Shown: piece by piece, positions 27,464 through 37,649 of the stretch
Position numbering within the stretch: position 1 is the stretch's first letter
How the letters are laid out: every line of letters begins with the position of its first letter
DNA from: Candidatus Dormiibacterota bacterium
GTDB taxonomy: Bacteria > Chloroflexota > Dormibacteria > Aeolococcales > Aeolococcaceae
Assembly (NCBI GenBank): GCA_036561525.1
Contig: DATBPD010000100.1
Location: 2,164 to 66,163 of the forward strand
Length of the DNA: 64,000 nt
Direction of reading: 5' to 3'
Notes under the pieces: model-generated
Told to the model about the DNA's origin: nothing
The model's database searches: none
Seen by the model: the letters and a program-made list of their open reading frames with translations, nothing else
Program-made: the position numbers and the translations under genes

Positions 27464-29053
27464 TCAGCCGAGGCGGTAGACGACCACCGTGACGCCGGGC
27501 GGCGGCGTTGGGGCGAGGGCGACTGCGGCCGGCGGTGTCACCTCATCGAACAGTCGTTGCGCGTTGGCTGGCGCCGGGTCACTCGCGCTCAGGACTGCGA
27601 TCGCGCCCGGCGCGGACGGCGGGTTGGCCGGGTCGAAGAGGGTCATGTTCAGGGCAGCGAGCAGCGGGGACGCGGAGTTGGCGACGAAGGTCTGCGGCGG
27701 CGGCGGACGGAAGGCGAACGCGGCCTGGATGTAGGGCTGATCGAGATTCACCGAGAGGAGCACCCGCCTGCCACCACTCAGGGCCTGCGCGCGTGTGATG
27801 GCGTCGATCTCCCCATAGTCGAAGGCTGCAGCGGCCCGCCCCGGCCAGGCCGCGTACATGTCGACGGTGAAGAGAGCGCCCTGGAGAGCGAGCGCCACGG
27901 CGGCTCCTGCGTACGCATAGCCACGCCACGATGCGGCGTGCTCGGTGAGGAATACCAGTCCCTCGACGCACAGGATGAGAAGGAACGGCAGCATCACCGC
28001 GGCGCGCACCGCGTGCGGGACGCTCTCGATGGTGAGCGCCGCGCTCATGGGCGCGGCCAGCAGGCCCAGGATGGCGAAGCGCACGAACGGCTGATCGCGG
28101 CGACGCCACGCGCCCACCAGCCCGGCCAGCAGCAGCGGCAGCGCAATCCACATCAGCATCCCTGAGAACTGCGTGTTGTGGCGCGGGTTGTGGTCGCCGC
28201 TCACGAACAGGAAGTCGGGGCCGAAGTAGGTCAGGTAGTTGCCGATGAACCTGCCTGCCACGGTCACAAGCGGCGCCCCGTCGGCCCCGACGCTGATGGC
28301 GTTGAACCGGGCCGTGATCGCCCCCGGGTGCTGCGCGCTCCACGCCGCCAGCACCCCGTAAGCGACCACGACGGGGACCAGCGTGATCATCCACGCTCGC
28401 ACATGGCGTTTCCAGTGCGGGCTGTGGGCGATGACGAGGGCAACGGCGAAGAGGAGCACCGCCACGCGGGCGGTGCTGTAGGCGAACACCGCGATGCCCA
28501 AGAACAGCCCAGCGCCGGCATACCATGCCCACCGCCCCGTGTCCTGGGCCATCGACAGGCAGAGCAGCGCGCCCGACACAGCCGCGACGAGAGCGATCAC
28601 CTCGAAGCCGACACGGCTCTCGACGGTCAGCCACGGGGTGAGCGCGGCCAGGGCCAGCACCAGGGTCGTCAGCGGCAGCGACCGGCTCCGCCGGAACGCA
28701 ATCAGGGTGATGAACAGGCACGTGAGCAGTCCGAAGATCGCCGCGGGGACACGCTCGGTGGTGACCGTGAGCGGCAGCACGCGGAGAAGCGCGCTCAGCG
28801 TGTAGATGTAGACGGGATTCTTGTACTCACCAAACGCGGTGAAGTAGAGCGGCAGGTGGGCGCCGTGCTCGTCGACCCCGTGGGTGTCGATCGCCCATGC
28901 GTTGTAGCCGATCGACGTCTCGTCGACGTACGCGCCCGGTGGTGCGTTGTCGAGACCGGCGAGGTTGCGGACCACGGTGAGCACCGCCACCGCCGCCAGG
29001 ATCAGCACCCAGGGGCTGCGGCGGACTCGAGAAATGGCGGTGGCGCGCCTCAC
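27464..29053 (-). CDS. ArnT/PMT-like GT-C membrane glycosyltransferase
   Basis: PPGAYVDE acidic motif after TM1, FGEYKNPVYIY, multiple TM helices; GTGA overlap with the tldE stop. Confidence 0.8.
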   Translation of the reverse strand: MRRATAISRVRRSPWVLILAAVAVLTVVRNLAGLDNAPPGAYVDETSIGYNAWAIDTHGVDEHGAHLPLYFTAFGEYKNPVYIYTLSALLRVLPLTVTTERVPAAIFGLLTCLFITLIAFRRSRSLPLTTLVLALAALTPWLTVESRVGFEVIALVAAVSGALLCLSMAQDTGRWAWYAGAGLFLGIAVFAYSTARVAVLLFAVALVIAHSPHWKRHVRAWMITLVPVVVAYGVLAAWSAQHPGAITARFNAISVGADGAPLVTVAGRFIGNYLTYFGPDFLFVSGDHNPRHNTQFSGMLMWIALPLLLAGLVGAWRRRDQPFVRFAILGLLAAPMSAALTIESVPHAVRAAVMLPFLLILCVEGLVFLTEHAASWRGYAYAGAAVALALQGALFTVDMYAAWPGRAAAAFDYGEIDAITRAQALSGGRRVLLSVNLDQPYIQAAFAFRPPPPQTFVANSASPLLAALNMTLFDPANPPSAPGAIAVLSASDPAPANAQRLFDEVTPPAAVALAPTPPPGVTVVVYRLG

Positions 29054-35957: not shown

Positions 35958-37649
35958 CTAGTGAGCCAGAATCGAGATGCTGCTCCAGAGGTTGTCGTAG
36001 AGCGCGTTGCCCCCGCCGCCCTGGACGTATGGCTTGATGAAGTACTGGTTGGCCCCGTACTCCAGATCGGCGTAGGCGATGTCGGTGATCAGCTGCTTAC
36101 CGGCAGTCTGGTAGTCCGTGTTCGCCTGCGCGCCGGACTCGCCCTCTGCCTTCTTGACGGCGCTGTCGACACGCGGGTCGCAGATGCCGTCGTTGTTGCC
36201 CAGGCCGATCGCCGCCTGGGAGCAGATGAAGACGTTGTCGAACCAGTCCTGCGGGTTGTCGTAGTCGGCACCCCAGCTGTCACGGAAGATGATGTACTTC
36301 TTGTCCTGGCGGTTGGTCAGGAACGTCGGGAAGTCCGTGCTCTGGGTGTCGACGTGGACACCGAGGTTGGTCTGCCACTGCGACTGCAGGTTGTCCGCGA
36401 TCGCCTTGTTCGAAGTGCCGGTGTTGTACCAGTAGACGAGACCCGCGCGCTTGGTGCTGTTGGGGTCCCATGTCTGCAGGTCGGCCTTGGCCTTGGTGGC
36501 GTCGAACACTGCGGTCGGGTCCTGGTTGTCGCCGAGGTAGCCCTGGAGGCCCTTGCTGATCACGCCTCCGGTCGCCGGCTTGCAGACGATGCCGCCGGGG
36601 CCACACGCGACGTTGACGAGCTGGGTGCGGTCGATCGCCTCACTGAAGGCGCGCCGGCCGGCCAGGGAGACGGGATCGTCGATGTTGCCCGGCGGGGGCG
36701 CGAACGGACCATGGTTGAAGTTGAAGCCGACCCAGGTGGTGCGCGCGCCGGGGATGTTGACGAACTGGCTCGAGAGGGCCGGGTTCGCCTGGAAGTTCCG
36801 GACCGCGTCCAGCGGTGGGTAGGTGTCGGCCGGCCCGACCGAGTCGTAGCCGCCGCTCTGGTACTTGGTCACCTGGCTCGATTGGTCGGCGAGAACTTGC
36901 ATCTCGATGTCGGTCAGGTGGCCGGTGCTGCCGCCCCACCAGTTCTGGACGGGAGCGAACGAGAGGTGGTCCTTGGGGACGTACGCGGTCAGCTTGTAGG
37001 GACCGGTGCCGATCGCGGTGGCCGGATTGGTCCACCAGGTCTTGTCGGTGTCTCCGGGGATCACCTTCTGGTCGAGGACGTCCATCGTCCACAGTCCCAC
37101 CTCGGTCAGCCAGTAGCCGGCTGGCGCCGTCAGGACCACCTTGACCGTGTATGTGTCAGGGGCGGTGAGGCCGGACAGCGTGGTGGCCGTCGGGGTGCCG
37201 GTCGCCGGCGCGACGGCTGTGTAGCCGACGATCGGCTGGAAGACGATGCCGTAAGAATCGTTGAGCCGCGCGGCCCGGTTCCAGCTGTAGAGGACGTCGG
37301 CCGACGTCACCGGGTCCCCGTTGGAGAACTTGACGTCATGACGCATGTGGAAGGTGTAGGTCAGACCGTCAGAGGAGACGTCGGGCTGGCCGGTGGCGAT
37401 GTCCGGAACCAGCTTGAGGTTGTCGTCGAACTTGTAGAGGCCGTCGAACATGTTCCGGACGGGCTCGATGGAGACGGCGTCAGAGACGTGTCCGGGATCC
37501 AGCGTCTTGACATCGTTGACGATGGGGAACCTGAACACCTGGTTGGGCGACAGCGCCTGGCCGCTCGGGCTGTTGCCCCCTCCGCTACCACAGGCGGTGG
37601 CAATCAGCGCCGGCACAGCCAGTGCCATTGCTATCCGTCGATGTTTCAT
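35958..37649 (-). CDS. oppA: Peptide ABC transporter substrate-binding lipoprotein (OppA-like)
   Basis: Lipobox LIATAC, TYTFHMRHDVKFSNGDPVTSADVLYSW, GTGPYKL and WGADY motifs; the longer ORF-track N-terminus is spurious. Confidence 0.92.
   Translation of the reverse strand: MKHRRIAMALAVPALIATACGSGGGNSPSGQALSPNQVFRFPIVNDVKTLDPGHVSDAVSIEPVRNMFDGLYKFDDNLKLVPDIATGQPDVSSDGLTYTFHMRHDVKFSNGDPVTSADVLYSWNRAARLNDSYGIVFQPIVGYTAVAPATGTPTATTLSGLTAPDTYTVKVVLTAPAGYWLTEVGLWTMDVLDQKVIPGDTDKTWWTNPATAIGTGPYKLTAYVPKDHLSFAPVQNWWGGSTGHLTDIEMQVLADQSSQVTKYQSGGYDSVGPADTYPPLDAVRNFQANPALSSQFVNIPGARTTWVGFNFNHGPFAPPPGNIDDPVSLAGRRAFSEAIDRTQLVNVACGPGGIVCKPATGGVISKGLQGYLGDNQDPTAVFDATKAKADLQTWDPNSTKRAGLVYWYNTGTSNKAIADNLQSQWQTNLGVHVDTQSTDFPTFLTNRQDKKYIIFRDSWGADYDNPQDWFDNVFICSQAAIGLGNNDGICDPRVDSAVKKAEGESGAQANTDYQTAGKQLITDIAYADLEYGANQYFIKPYVQGGGGNALYDNLWSSISILAH

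Follow-up and report, generated by a model that had tools for sequence, protein, structure and literature searches.

On balance, our analysis speaks for the idea that eight genes of an uncultured soil bacterium (a Dormibacteria MAG) form one transcription unit, which would combine the uptake of oligopeptides with their degradation in the cytoplasm. The lipoprotein OppA would capture peptides outside the membrane, OppBCDF would import them at the expense of ATP, and a TldD/TldE cage may thread the unfolded imported peptides N-terminus first and trim them to short fragments, which other peptidases would then finish. The arrangement is the genus-specific version of a module that is common among Dormibacteria, in which a gene for a family-5 solute-binding protein (SBP5), with or without permease and ATPase genes of its own, stands beside tldD-tldE, usually directly upstream of this phylum-wide pair, and in which a C26 (gamma-glutamyl-type) peptidase usually follows. 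The GT-C glycosyltransferase (GT) at the 3' end, which may use a lipid-linked sugar donor outside the membrane as ArnT and PMT enzymes do, is probably co-transcribed with the other genes; its role is most likely general envelope glycosylation and not peptide processing.

All features discussed here lie in the window, i. e. the whole stretch of 64,000 nucleotides that was analysed:

26220..27386, minus strand: thiolase (acetyl-CoA C-acyltransferase), Thiolase_N and Thiolase_C, TIGR01930 at 467 bits, above the cut-off
27416..27423, minus strand: -10-like element TGTATGGT with a conserved hexamer, in the 77-nt GT-thiolase spacer
27464..29053, minus strand: GT-C fold glycosyltransferase, ArnT/PMT-like by fold match, 529 aa
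29050..30381, minus strand: tldE (pmbA), non-catalytic partner, 443 aa, PmbA_TldD_3rd and PmbA_TldD_1st
30378..31814, minus strand: tldD, catalytic subunit, 478 aa, three PmbA_TldD Pfam domains
31815..31842, minus strand: 28-nt oppF-tldD spacer with the purine-rich ribosome-binding stretch GGGTGAGCGG
31843..32958, minus strand: oppF, ATPase, ABC_tran and oligo_HPY
32945..33982, minus strand: oppD, ATPase, ABC_tran and oligo_HPY
33983..34918, minus strand: oppC, permease, BPD_transp_1 and OppC_N (E 2.2e-15)
34915..35841, minus strand: oppB, permease, BPD_transp_1 (E 3.4e-36) and BPD_transp_1_N
35879..35909, minus strand: G+C-rich hairpin with a 13-bp stem between oppA and oppB (CGGGGAGCCCGCC-ACAGG-GGCGGGCUCCCCG), with a C/U-rich tract behind it
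35928..35945, minus strand: smaller hairpin CCCCGU-ACUCAA-ACGGGG upstream of the former, also between oppA and oppB, recurring in the genus loci with drifting sequence
35958..37649, minus strand: oppA, family-5 solute-binding lipoprotein, 563 aa, Pfam SBP_bac_5 (E 1.1e-63)
37650..37817, no strand assigned: 168-nt spacer between oppA and a divergent HAMP/HisKA_3 histidine kinase gene on the plus strand

As the initial annotation had stated, oppA, oppB, oppC, oppD, oppF, tldD, tldE and the GT-C gene follow each other in this order, all eight on the minus strand, and direct reading of the junctions confirmed gaps of at most 28 nt or overlaps from oppB through the GT gene as well as the GTGA overlap of tldE and the GT gene. 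The oppA/oppB gap measures 116 nt; oppB/oppC and tldD/tldE each overlap by ATGA, the start of oppD abuts the stop of oppC, oppD and oppF overlap by 14 nt, and 28 nt separate oppF from tldD. Overlaps of 4 nt and short gaps are common in compact genomes and are little proof by themselves; the real test of the arrangement is conservation rather than spacing. Within the window's genus, about ten species-level genomes share the full order oppABCDF-tldD-tldE-GT.

The importer genes encode what characterizes the PepT family (Opp/Dpp, TC 3.A.1.5): an SBP5 protein, two BPD_transp_1 permeases, one of them with OppC_N, and two oligo_HPY ATPases. The SBP_bac_5 match of OppA spans profile positions 1-365 of 368, and the signal peptide carries a lipobox (...IATAC), after which a Gly/Ser/Pro-rich linker follows. 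Among the NCBIfam models, OppA itself (NF011684) was the best match, with 136.6 bits against an equivalog cut-off of 947; weak scores were likewise obtained with the nickel, dipeptide, glutathione and Sap models. Because the score is so far below the cut-off and the ligand is a prediction only, we file the protein as 'Opp-type' and not as OppA: judged by these profiles, it is a generic Opp/Mpp/Yej-like binding protein below the level of equivalence to E. coli OppA. SBP5 proteins bind other ligands too, e. g. nickel and opines. Homologues with at least 79% identity occur only in the window's genus, and identity to the binding proteins that occupy the same position in other genera is about 25%.

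TldD contains the motif HESCGH at residue 249 and the CGK cysteine. It aligns to E. coli TldD (5nj5) with an E value of 1e-30, with HExxxH and CGK in register, and the alignment shows the predicted metal site to be intact. The HExxxH motif is absent from the TldE sequence, the PDB relatives of which are 1vl4 and 1vpb. A search of the MAG with tldE returned one match, so that this is the only tldE found there, and tldD-tldE is the only TldD/TldE pair found. Against the NCBIfam TldD equivalogs the scores were 155 bits versus 635 (NF040952) and 114 versus 513 (NF008006); membership in TldD/TldE (MEROPS M103) is thus at the family level only, below the equivalog level, and the two proteins are predicted to form a heterodimer. 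TldD/E cleaves unfolded peptides from the N-terminus irrespective of their sequence, and what it does natively is described as an open question (PMC5810440).

The assignment of the GT rests on its fold, since its Pfam PMT_2 score of 24.8 bits is just under the gathering score of 26.1; PF13231 is precomputed for many close homologues and PF02366 for one, and neither NCBIfam nor, by sequence, the PDB gave a match for the protein. Its start at 29053 was chosen by fit to the lengths of homologues (other in-frame GTG codons are at 29086 and 29008). The protein has about 13 membrane helices and a C-terminal alpha/beta domain. With the AlphaFold model (pLDDT 89.1, pTM 0.90), the best Foldseek match was ArnT 5f15 (E 1.8e-8, TM 0.55-0.56), followed by ALG12, STT3/AglB/PglB and Pmt4, and 42 of the top 50 matches were GT-C enzymes. 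In an alignment of 30 homologues, down to 43% identity, D44-E45 is invariant, and in the model this pair lies in the first outside loop, which joins helices 1 and 2; we infer that it corresponds to the catalytic Asp of ArnT and PMT. The cluster contains no arn or ppm genes.

By its position, the divergent spacer between the kinase gene and oppA is presumed to be the promoter region of the opp-tldDE-GT unit; a simple scan of this spacer found no sigma-70 consensus. The oppA-oppB spacer folds with -53.9 kcal/mol (z -3.65). Its 13-bp stem is unique in the genome and is kept in nine genus loci at -32 kcal/mol; across these loci it shows G-U wobble changes only and no compensatory pairs, and the spacer has no match in Rfam. 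The hairpin is a probable intra-operon attenuator or mRNA-stabilising stem, owing to which more binding protein than permease would be made. The oppF-tldD spacer varies among genus members in length (24-90 nt) and sequence; only Shine-Dalgarno-like purines recur, and comparison of the genus loci revealed no conserved promoter-like motif in it.

The 3' boundary of the unit is suggested by the -10-like motif conserved before the thiolase gene. A TAnnnT hexamer (TATGGT, TAAAGT, TAGAAT, TAGAGT or TACAGT) is present there in 10 of 11 genus loci, the remaining one (L054) having TAGAAG; in several loci it lies 8-14 nt ahead of the thiolase start codon, and the rest of the spacer is unconserved among the genus loci. 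TGTATGGT is thus a probable separate promoter of the thiolase gene. Moreover, the gap between the GT and thiolase genes is 50-80 nt across the window's family, compared to at most 19 nt inside the module. The thiolase is probably a conserved downstream neighbour with its own transcript, outside the peptide module. The run of genes described in the initial annotation is real but was ended too early: beyond the GT gene, the genes for the thiolase and a receiver-only response regulator follow on the same strand, and then a 95-aa ORF, with which the run reaches 25438.

The conservation of the locus is layered. In each of the 20 Chloroflexota loci that were sampled, tldD and tldE are neighbours. 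An SBP5 gene or a full Opp-type cassette beside this pair was found in three Dormibacteria families, mostly directly upstream, and in none of 16 loci from other Chloroflexota classes. A survey for the GT yielded 550 matches in contigs from one genome per species, and the best 80 all had a Dormibacteria-type locus: about 32 of these 80 carry an orphan SBPb-tldD-tldE-C26-GT, about ten oppABCDF-tldD-tldE-GT, and four SBPc-oppBCDF, in three cases with an insertion of msrPQ ahead of tldD. In about six loci of the window's family (f1), tldD has no transporter gene upstream. Family f2 has SBPf2-tldD-tldE or, in one genome, tldD-tldE convergent with SBPf2-oppBC; family f3 has SBP5-SBP5-tldD-tldE-C26, and in family f5 tldD lacks an upstream transporter gene. 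Alternative cassettes occupy the site upstream of tldD even within a single genus. The four SBP5 subtypes found beside tldD-tldE are mutually unrelated, with about 24-25% identity, and therefore a juxtaposition or replacement must have happened at least two or three times at the same site; the variety of subtypes argues for selection. The proposed import-and-process unit is plausible, and more than chance, as the pairing of an importer with TldD/E, which recurs in three families with four binding-protein subtypes, but not as a pathway for a specific peptide.

Most genera encode an orphan binding protein upstream and have a C26 peptidase gene between those of tldE and the GT (in two families, C26 comes after tldE); uptake in these genera would therefore need a permease encoded elsewhere. 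Across the window's family the gaps within the module are 42-48, -4 to 17, at most 24 and at most 19 nt. Only the window's genus has the full oppABCDF cassette; C26 has been lost there, and the GTGA overlap of tldE and the GT gene is a derived by-product of this loss. The 'coupling' of the two genes that had been read from the overlap thus falls away, and the order opp-tldDE-GT, for which a lack of conservation in relatives had been named as a refutation, holds for the genus but not beyond it. The region from hom via the two-component system to metH (15-20 kb) is syntenic across the family, and conservation therefore partly reflects vertical inheritance and not selection on the pairing.

This synteny, which takes in unrelated housekeeping genes (hom, metH, thiolase), also fits the view that importer and protease have no functional link, the site between kinase and tldD being a permissive insertion spot and the co-directional order being inherited by descent. 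Long co-directional runs are common within the window, what precedes tldD is variable (an orphan SBP, two SBPs, two kinds of full cassette, msrPQ, MarR or nothing), and all 16 tldDE pairs sampled outside Dormibacteria lack the SBP5 neighbour. However, most loci by far have an SBP5 or Opp-type gene in the variable slot, and since about 1% of genes belong to such systems, chance alone would be unlikely to bring this class of gene there repeatedly and independently, by an order-of-magnitude estimate; the C26 peptidase in the tldDE unit adds a second peptide-bond theme. We therefore consider the absence of a link unlikely. A different question is whether the GT belongs to the pathway and glycosylates an exported component, in the first place the binding lipoprotein at its S/T/P/G-rich linker, to protect it in a protease-rich setting in which peptides are scavenged. 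Actinobacterial Pmt is known to glycosylate lipoproteins. Across f1 the GT gene closes a tight unit of five genes, in most loci at most 19 nt behind C26, all the binding proteins have such linkers after the lipobox cysteine, and the GT has an ArnT/PMT-like fold and an invariant D-E motif. The streamlined genome G024 (1.5 Mb, 98% complete) lacks tldDE and C26, and a binding protein of the orthologous type still adjoins the GT there, but this is a single observation that deletion of the intervening genes explains equally well. Linkers rich in S/T/P are a general trait of the lipoproteins of monoderm-like bacteria, the GT is a late addition to the cluster, made in the window's family only, and is missing from the equivalent SBP5-tldDE clusters of f2 and f3, and in three genera it occurs with no orthologous tldE nearby. 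About 20 nested GT duplicates lie outside the cluster, and of three paralog sites checked, two adjoin GT87-type GT-C genes and one does not, which suggests work on an envelope glycan or glycolipid. Dedicated glycosylation of the binding protein is thus rather doubtful, and of the link to surface glycosylation that had been proposed, the GT-C fold remains while the tie to this pathway is weak.

Two further readings concern the cargo. Toxic antimicrobial peptides could be imported and destroyed by TldD/E, similar to Sap/YejABEF. SapA- and Yej-type binding proteins are members of SBP5, and E. coli TldD/E degrades peptide toxins and antitoxin fragments (PMC5810440); however, the weak NCBIfam matches of OppA to SapA and PRK09755 are far under the cut-offs, the unit contains no resistance-type regulator or other defence gene, and the C26 gamma-glutamyl-type peptidase of most genera is a better fit to catabolism, so that we find a defence function improbable. 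To one specific peptide signal, imported, processed and sensed or controlled via the adjacent histidine kinase and LuxR-type regulator, we give hardly any credence. A two-component system is indeed encoded divergently beside the unit in most of f1, but the spacers hold no candidate precursor or small ORF and no RNA element of a type known to Rfam, the swapping of unrelated binding proteins at the site is hard to square with one dedicated ligand, and TldD/E acts without sequence specificity (PMC5810440). The specific peptide or signal invoked in the initial annotation thus finds neither a precursor ORF nor a binding protein other than a generic one far below equivalog scores. Uptake and degradation of oligopeptides remains the reading that we prefer.

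Compared with known systems, the unit shares with OppABCDF and DppABCDF of E. coli and Salmonella the five-gene order of binding protein, two permeases and two ATPases, and SBP_bac_5, OppC_N and oligo_HPY are all present. Opp/Dpp-type operons typically have a larger spacer behind the gene of the binding protein, with a stem-loop in it, and the oppA-oppB spacer is alike; E. coli OppA differs in that its counterpart here is a lipoprotein that scores far below the OppA model. We know of no enterobacterial opp operon that runs on into tldD, tldE and a glycosyltransferase as this one does. In E. coli, tldD and tldE are unlinked and are not known to have a transporter as a neighbour, whereas in the window they overlap and sit behind an importer. 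Both bacteria have a catalytic and a non-catalytic paralogue, HExxxH and the CGK cysteine of the catalytic ones are aligned, and by analogy N-terminal threading of unfolded peptides would be expected here as well (PMC5810440). For the GT, ArnT of Cupriavidus metallidurans (GT83; 5f15/5ezm) is the best structural match with its GT-C fold, at 16% identity, and Pmt4 (9i5k), one of the bacterial and fungal protein O-mannosyltransferases (GT39), was also matched by Foldseek; the acidic D-E pair in the first extracytoplasmic loop is a probable further common feature, and homologues are labelled 'GT39 family' or 'ArnT-like' in databases. ArnT transfers L-Ara4N to lipid A, and PMT enzymes transfer mannose to Ser/Thr. 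In B. subtilis, the dpp operon (the D-aminopeptidase gene dppA with dppBCDE), next to ykfABCD, provides a PepT-type importer that is co-transcribed with a cytoplasmic peptidase handling the cargo; there, M55, NlpC/P60 and LD-carboxypeptidase enzymes take the place of TldD/E and C26, and no glycosyltransferase is involved, unlike in the window. The unit is thus a variant of importer-plus-peptidase operons, and the recurring pairing of importers with TldD/E across the class may hint at the purpose of this widespread protease.

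Eleven co-directional minus-strand genes lie between a divergent histidine kinase gene and a convergent metH in the window, which has a G+C content of about 70%:

37818-40346, plus strand: histidine kinase gene, divergent from oppA
minus strand: oppA (SBP_bac_5)
minus strand: oppB (BPD_transp_1)
minus strand: oppC (BPD_transp_1 and OppC_N)
minus strand: oppD and oppF (ABC_tran and oligo_HPY each)
minus strand: tldD (three PmbA_TldD domains)
minus strand: tldE (two PmbA_TldD domains)
minus strand: glycosyltransferase gene (GT; 529-aa membrane protein, PMT_2 match below threshold)
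27386-26220, minus strand: thiolase gene, next after GT
minus strand: receiver-only response regulator gene, after the thiolase gene
minus strand: 95-aa ORF without family match, after the response regulator gene
21875-25450, plus strand: metH, convergent with the minus-strand run

By their Pfam domains, all eight identities that the initial annotation had assigned to one strand (oppABCDF, tldD, tldE and GT) hold, and direct reading of the junctions bears out the tight spacing it had described: oppA and oppB are separated by 116 nt, oppB and oppC overlap by ATGA, oppC and oppD abut, oppD and oppF overlap by 14 nt, a gap of 28 nt precedes tldD, and the tldD/tldE and tldE/GT junctions are ATGA and GTGA overlaps, respectively. 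TldD carries HESCGH at residue 249, and both the HExxxH motif and the CGK cysteine are in register with E. coli TldD (PDB 5nj5, E 1e-30); TldE is devoid of HExxxH. Since this tldE is the only one found in the window's genome (a MAG of 2.56 Mb, 84% complete), TldD/E is here a housekeeping pair, not an accessory copy. The G+C content falls to 64-66% over 32-38 kb of the window, and the third-position G+C of the opp region (0.86-0.90) is as high as in the neighbouring genes. The dip therefore reflects the amino-acid content, and composition offers no sign that the opp cassette is of foreign origin.

The larger gap in front of the thiolase gene, a conserved hexamer within it, and the oppF-tldD spacer, which varies in length and sequence within the genus and keeps only purine-rich ribosome-binding stretches, together place the probable 3' end of the unit after GT. 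In the window's family (f1), the intergenic distances, derived from alignment starts and to be read as upper bounds, are 42-48 nt between the gene for the binding-protein subtype SBPb and tldD, -4 to 17 nt between tldD and tldE, at most 24 nt between tldE and the gene for a gamma-glutamyl-type peptidase (C26), and at most 19 nt between C26 and GT; further downstream they rise to 50-80 nt (GT-thiolase) and 56-130 nt (thiolase-response regulator). The GT-thiolase spacer is unconserved in the genus apart from a TAnnnT hexamer, which reads TGTATGGT in the window (27416-27423). In several relatives (among the loci L050 and L052-L056) no more than 8-14 nt separate this hexamer from the thiolase ATG, a position that suggests a promoter for a short-leader or leaderless mRNA. 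In the window's branch, the thiolase leader comprises 27 nt and includes GGGAGAG. Two motifs stand out in the thiolase-response regulator spacer (26164-26219): the 18-nt GGTCACGCTTCTGTCGCA and, some 25 nt further on, TTGGTATGCT / TTGCTATGCT, which has the extended -10-like form TGnTATGCT. Both are almost invariant in all loci of the genus while the remaining spacer drifts, and they resemble a regulated promoter or operator that would serve the receiver-only regulator gene and the 95-aa ORF. The true start codon of the regulator may lie downstream of the annotated TTG at 26163. With their larger spacers and their own conserved promoter-like motifs, the three genes that follow GT (thiolase, receiver-only regulator, 95-aa ORF) were rejected as members of the unit. 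Simple scans returned no sigma-70 sites, and terminator-like sites were no commoner than in shuffled sequences; both results are uninformative at 70% G+C.

The 116-nt spacer between oppA and oppB folds strongly (-53.9 kcal/mol, z -3.65), and a 13-bp G+C stem within it (35879-35909) is kept in nine loci of the genus with wobble changes only. An Rfam search over 24000-42000 gave no match, including for this stem. The stem is unique in the genome, which rules out a repeated REP-like element. Stem-loops after a binding-protein gene are the usual device to produce more binding protein than permease, and by analogy the oppA-oppB stem would serve this function.

How far is this gene order conserved? 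The complete arrangement, from the LuxR/histidine kinase genes via oppABCDF-tldD-tldE-GT-thiolase-response regulator-ORF95 to metH, is present in about ten species-level genomes of the genus. Our neighbourhood survey of 80 loci around GT homologues, taken from one-genome-per-species contigs and annotated by tblastn and Pfam, revealed that the order seen by the initial annotation is not kept beyond the genus. The dominant architecture (about 32 loci) has, next to the LuxR/histidine kinase genes, an orphan gene for SBPb, a lipoprotein of about 650 aa, followed by tldD-tldE-C26-GT-thiolase-response regulator-ORF95. Another subtype, SBPc, occurs with oppBCDF in four loci, three of which also carry msrPQ before tldD; msrPQ alone precedes tldD in two further loci, in about six the kinase gene and tldD are immediate neighbours, and about twenty are GT paralogues at unrelated sites. 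SBPb, SBPc and SBPd share 43-56% identity among themselves and only about 25% with OppA of the window. Proteins of the window's OppA type (at least 79% identity) are confined to the genus; the best matches elsewhere reach at most 44% and are encoded on other contigs. In the window's genome, no SBPb-type gene was found, and C26 is represented only by a 38%-identical paralogue located elsewhere. Even the genus clade is not uniform at the tldD site: the SBPc cassette occupies it in one species, and in another no cassette is present.

Several further features of these loci deserve mention. In two genus members (G001, contigs C1, C2 and C3; G003, contig C4), two or three oppA copies of the window's type, 79-84% identical, occupy different places; thus, the genus has seen a duplication of this cassette or of its binding protein. 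The MsrPQ/YedYZ-like pair (a molybdopterin oxidoreductase and a cytochrome b561) lies directly upstream of tldD in loci L106, L108, L118, L123, L124 and L038, and in L106, L108 and L123 it is located between an Opp-type cassette and tldD. A 300-aa unrecognised ORF (no Pfam match for the L124 sequence) takes the place of C26 in L118 and L124. tldD or tldE is split or has an in-frame TGA in L056, L074, L102, L104, L105 and L114 (mostly MFD long-read MAGs) as well as in G001 and G003, most likely due to assembly frameshift errors and not to pseudogene formation. The genes for the histidine kinase (HAMP, HisKA_3), the LuxR-type regulator and homoserine dehydrogenase (37818-42243 in the window; L059-L105) are syntenic across the family; between genera the kinase is only 24-28% identical whereas the LuxR-type regulator is about 77% identical, indicating that the sensor part evolves very fast. 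Finally, seven loci (L059, L063, L076, L085, L124, L123 and L111) from records labelled Saccharimonadales, Acidiferrales, Angelobacter, Actinomycetes or Chloroflexia have the Dormibacteria-type syntenic block and are nested in the Dormibacteria GT tree; the deposited bins probably bear wrong taxonomic labels.

Wider sampling covered a phylum-wide genome set of 47 families with genomes of up to 7.7 Mb, consistent with the rank of the Dormibacteria as a class of the Chloroflexota in GTDB. In the sister family f2, tldD-tldE (43% and 33% identical) are preceded by genes for a GntR regulator and SBPf2, a third SBP5 subtype about 24% identical to the others; in one closed f2 genome, tldD-tldE are convergent with SBPf2-oppB-oppC. 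Neither GT nor thiolase is present at the f2 loci. In a sample of 20 tldD orthologue loci (50-61% identity) from whole-genome searches across the phylum, tldD and tldE are adjacent in every one. An SBP5 gene is directly upstream only in family f3, of the same class as the window (SBP5-SBP5-tldD-tldE-C26, with a convergent gene next and no GT); no adjacent SBP5 gene was found in family f5 or in the 16 loci of other classes, and in two f13 loci an SBP5 gene is 2.6 kb away from tldD-tldE. The best 120 TldE matches listed were all Dormibacteria-type sequences and hence uninformative on contexts outside the phylum. The distribution fits a stepwise history: tldD-tldE of the phylum were joined by SBP5 in the class Dormibacteria, with C26 in f1 and f3, and then by the GT-C gene in f1. 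In the last step, in the window's genus, the orphan binding protein would have been replaced by the full oppABCDF cassette, and C26 lost. Because C26 was lost, tldE and GT overlap by GTGA; what had been taken as a sign of tight coupling of GT is thus a derived feature, a by-product of this loss.

According to its AlphaFold model, which is confident (pLDDT 89.1, pTM 0.90), GT is an ArnT/PMT-like GT-C enzyme. ArnT (5f15, E 1.8e-8, TM about 0.55) ranks first among the structural matches, ahead of ALG12 and then the STT3/AglB/PglB oligosaccharyltransferases and Pmt4. Only the fold search succeeded: by sequence, the GT profile found no match in the PDB even at E 1. With this result, an identity to ArnT of 16% and a Pfam match just under the threshold, GT is best not classified as either ArnT or a protein mannosyltransferase; database labels on the homologues read 'GT39 family' or 'ArnT-like'. 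Across 30 homologues (43-81% identical), a D44-E45 pair and other charged residues are invariant. Those homologues that bear names are from MAGs of Candidatus Dormibacterota/Dormibacteria (Ca. Dormibacter, Ca. Aeolococcus gillhamiae, Ca. Amunia macphersoniae). In a maximum likelihood tree of 83 sequences, the copies in tldDE context are vertically inherited, and those out of context are nested duplicates. Tandem or clustered GT-C duplications occur in L106/L038 (genome G021), L084, L086 and L096.

Is GT functionally linked to the peptide unit? Equivalent SBP5-tldDE clusters are devoid of GT in f2 and f3, duplicates reside elsewhere, and in three genera GT is present with no orthologous tldE nearby. 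These findings favour a general enzyme of envelope glycosylation whose gene is incidentally the last of the operon in one family, and the tie between the unit and surface glycosylation that had been suggested initially finds no support. One could imagine that GT glycosylates the binding lipoprotein of the uptake route: all binding proteins have S/T/P/G-rich linkers after the lipobox, and the streamlined genome G024 (1.5 Mb, 98% complete) has lost tldDE and C26 and kept a PAP2-SBPd-GT row, a single observation. However, the GT-free clusters of f2 and f3 argue against this idea, as do the GT87-type GT-C genes beside two of the three paralogue sites examined (the third has a DPP-IV-like peptidase, an alcohol dehydrogenase and detoxification-type genes), and we regard it as unlikely. 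Although GT made the finding look unusual, a mechanistic link between it and the peptide unit is probably absent. In L096 and L043, the adjoining GT87-family genes are a hint of a Dormibacteria locus for assembling an envelope glycan or glycolipid, and in G024 (L039/L122) the row of PAP2 phosphatase, orphan SBP5 and GT-C genes is followed by CpaB/TadB/TadC/TadE pilus genes.

For the unit itself, we propose that OppA would bind oligopeptides, that OppBCDF would bring them into the cell, and that TldD/E would degrade them. In E. coli, TldD/E is built as a closed heterodimeric shell into which only unfolded chains can pass, N-terminus first, and which cuts them without sequence preference (PMC5810440). 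A degrading function fits since imported oligopeptides are just such unfolded substrates. TldD/E occurs in the majority of bacteria and archaea; the substrates established for it are limited to peptides that are plasmid-borne or natural products (microcin B17, CcdA), and its general physiological role was stated as open in the structural study (PMC5810440). A RiPP-type role of TldD/E as leader peptidase was rejected, as neither a precursor ORF nor a modification enzyme is encoded within the unit or close to it. The C26 peptidase of most genera is PuuD-like with a score below the cut-off, and contributes a second peptide- or amide-bond enzyme to the module. It is tempting to combine all these elements: in Dormibacteria, TldD/E would natively serve as the last, cytoplasmic step of a peptide uptake that depends on binding proteins, the class-wide SBP5-TldD-TldE-C26 module would be a hitherto undescribed salvage route for a particular class of peptides (e.g. 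gamma-glutamyl or cell-wall-derived ones), and GT-C would have been recruited in one family to glycosylate the binding lipoprotein. Taken as a whole, this scenario seems unlikely to us.

A full-text literature search found no description of an Opp/SBP5-TldD/E pairing or of a TldD/E-GT-C operon, and papers on the Sulfolobus TldD and the Thermococcus proteome do not mention gene context. With GT probably unlinked in mechanism, the opp-tldDE-GT combination should not in itself be taken for a new pathway; for the import-and-process pathway tied to glycosylation that had been envisaged, the glycosylation-coupled processing of peptides is unsupported. What matters is the pairing with peptide-binding proteins or importers, which is repeated and has been independently rebuilt across the class and which suggests a testable role for TldD/E, the disposal of imported oligopeptides. 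The Dormibacteria, which are uncultured, live in soil and permafrost and are discussed mostly for trace-gas oxidation, appear to invest in peptide scavenging. Operons that combine an importer with a peptidase are of a known kind, as exemplified by the dpp operon of B. subtilis.
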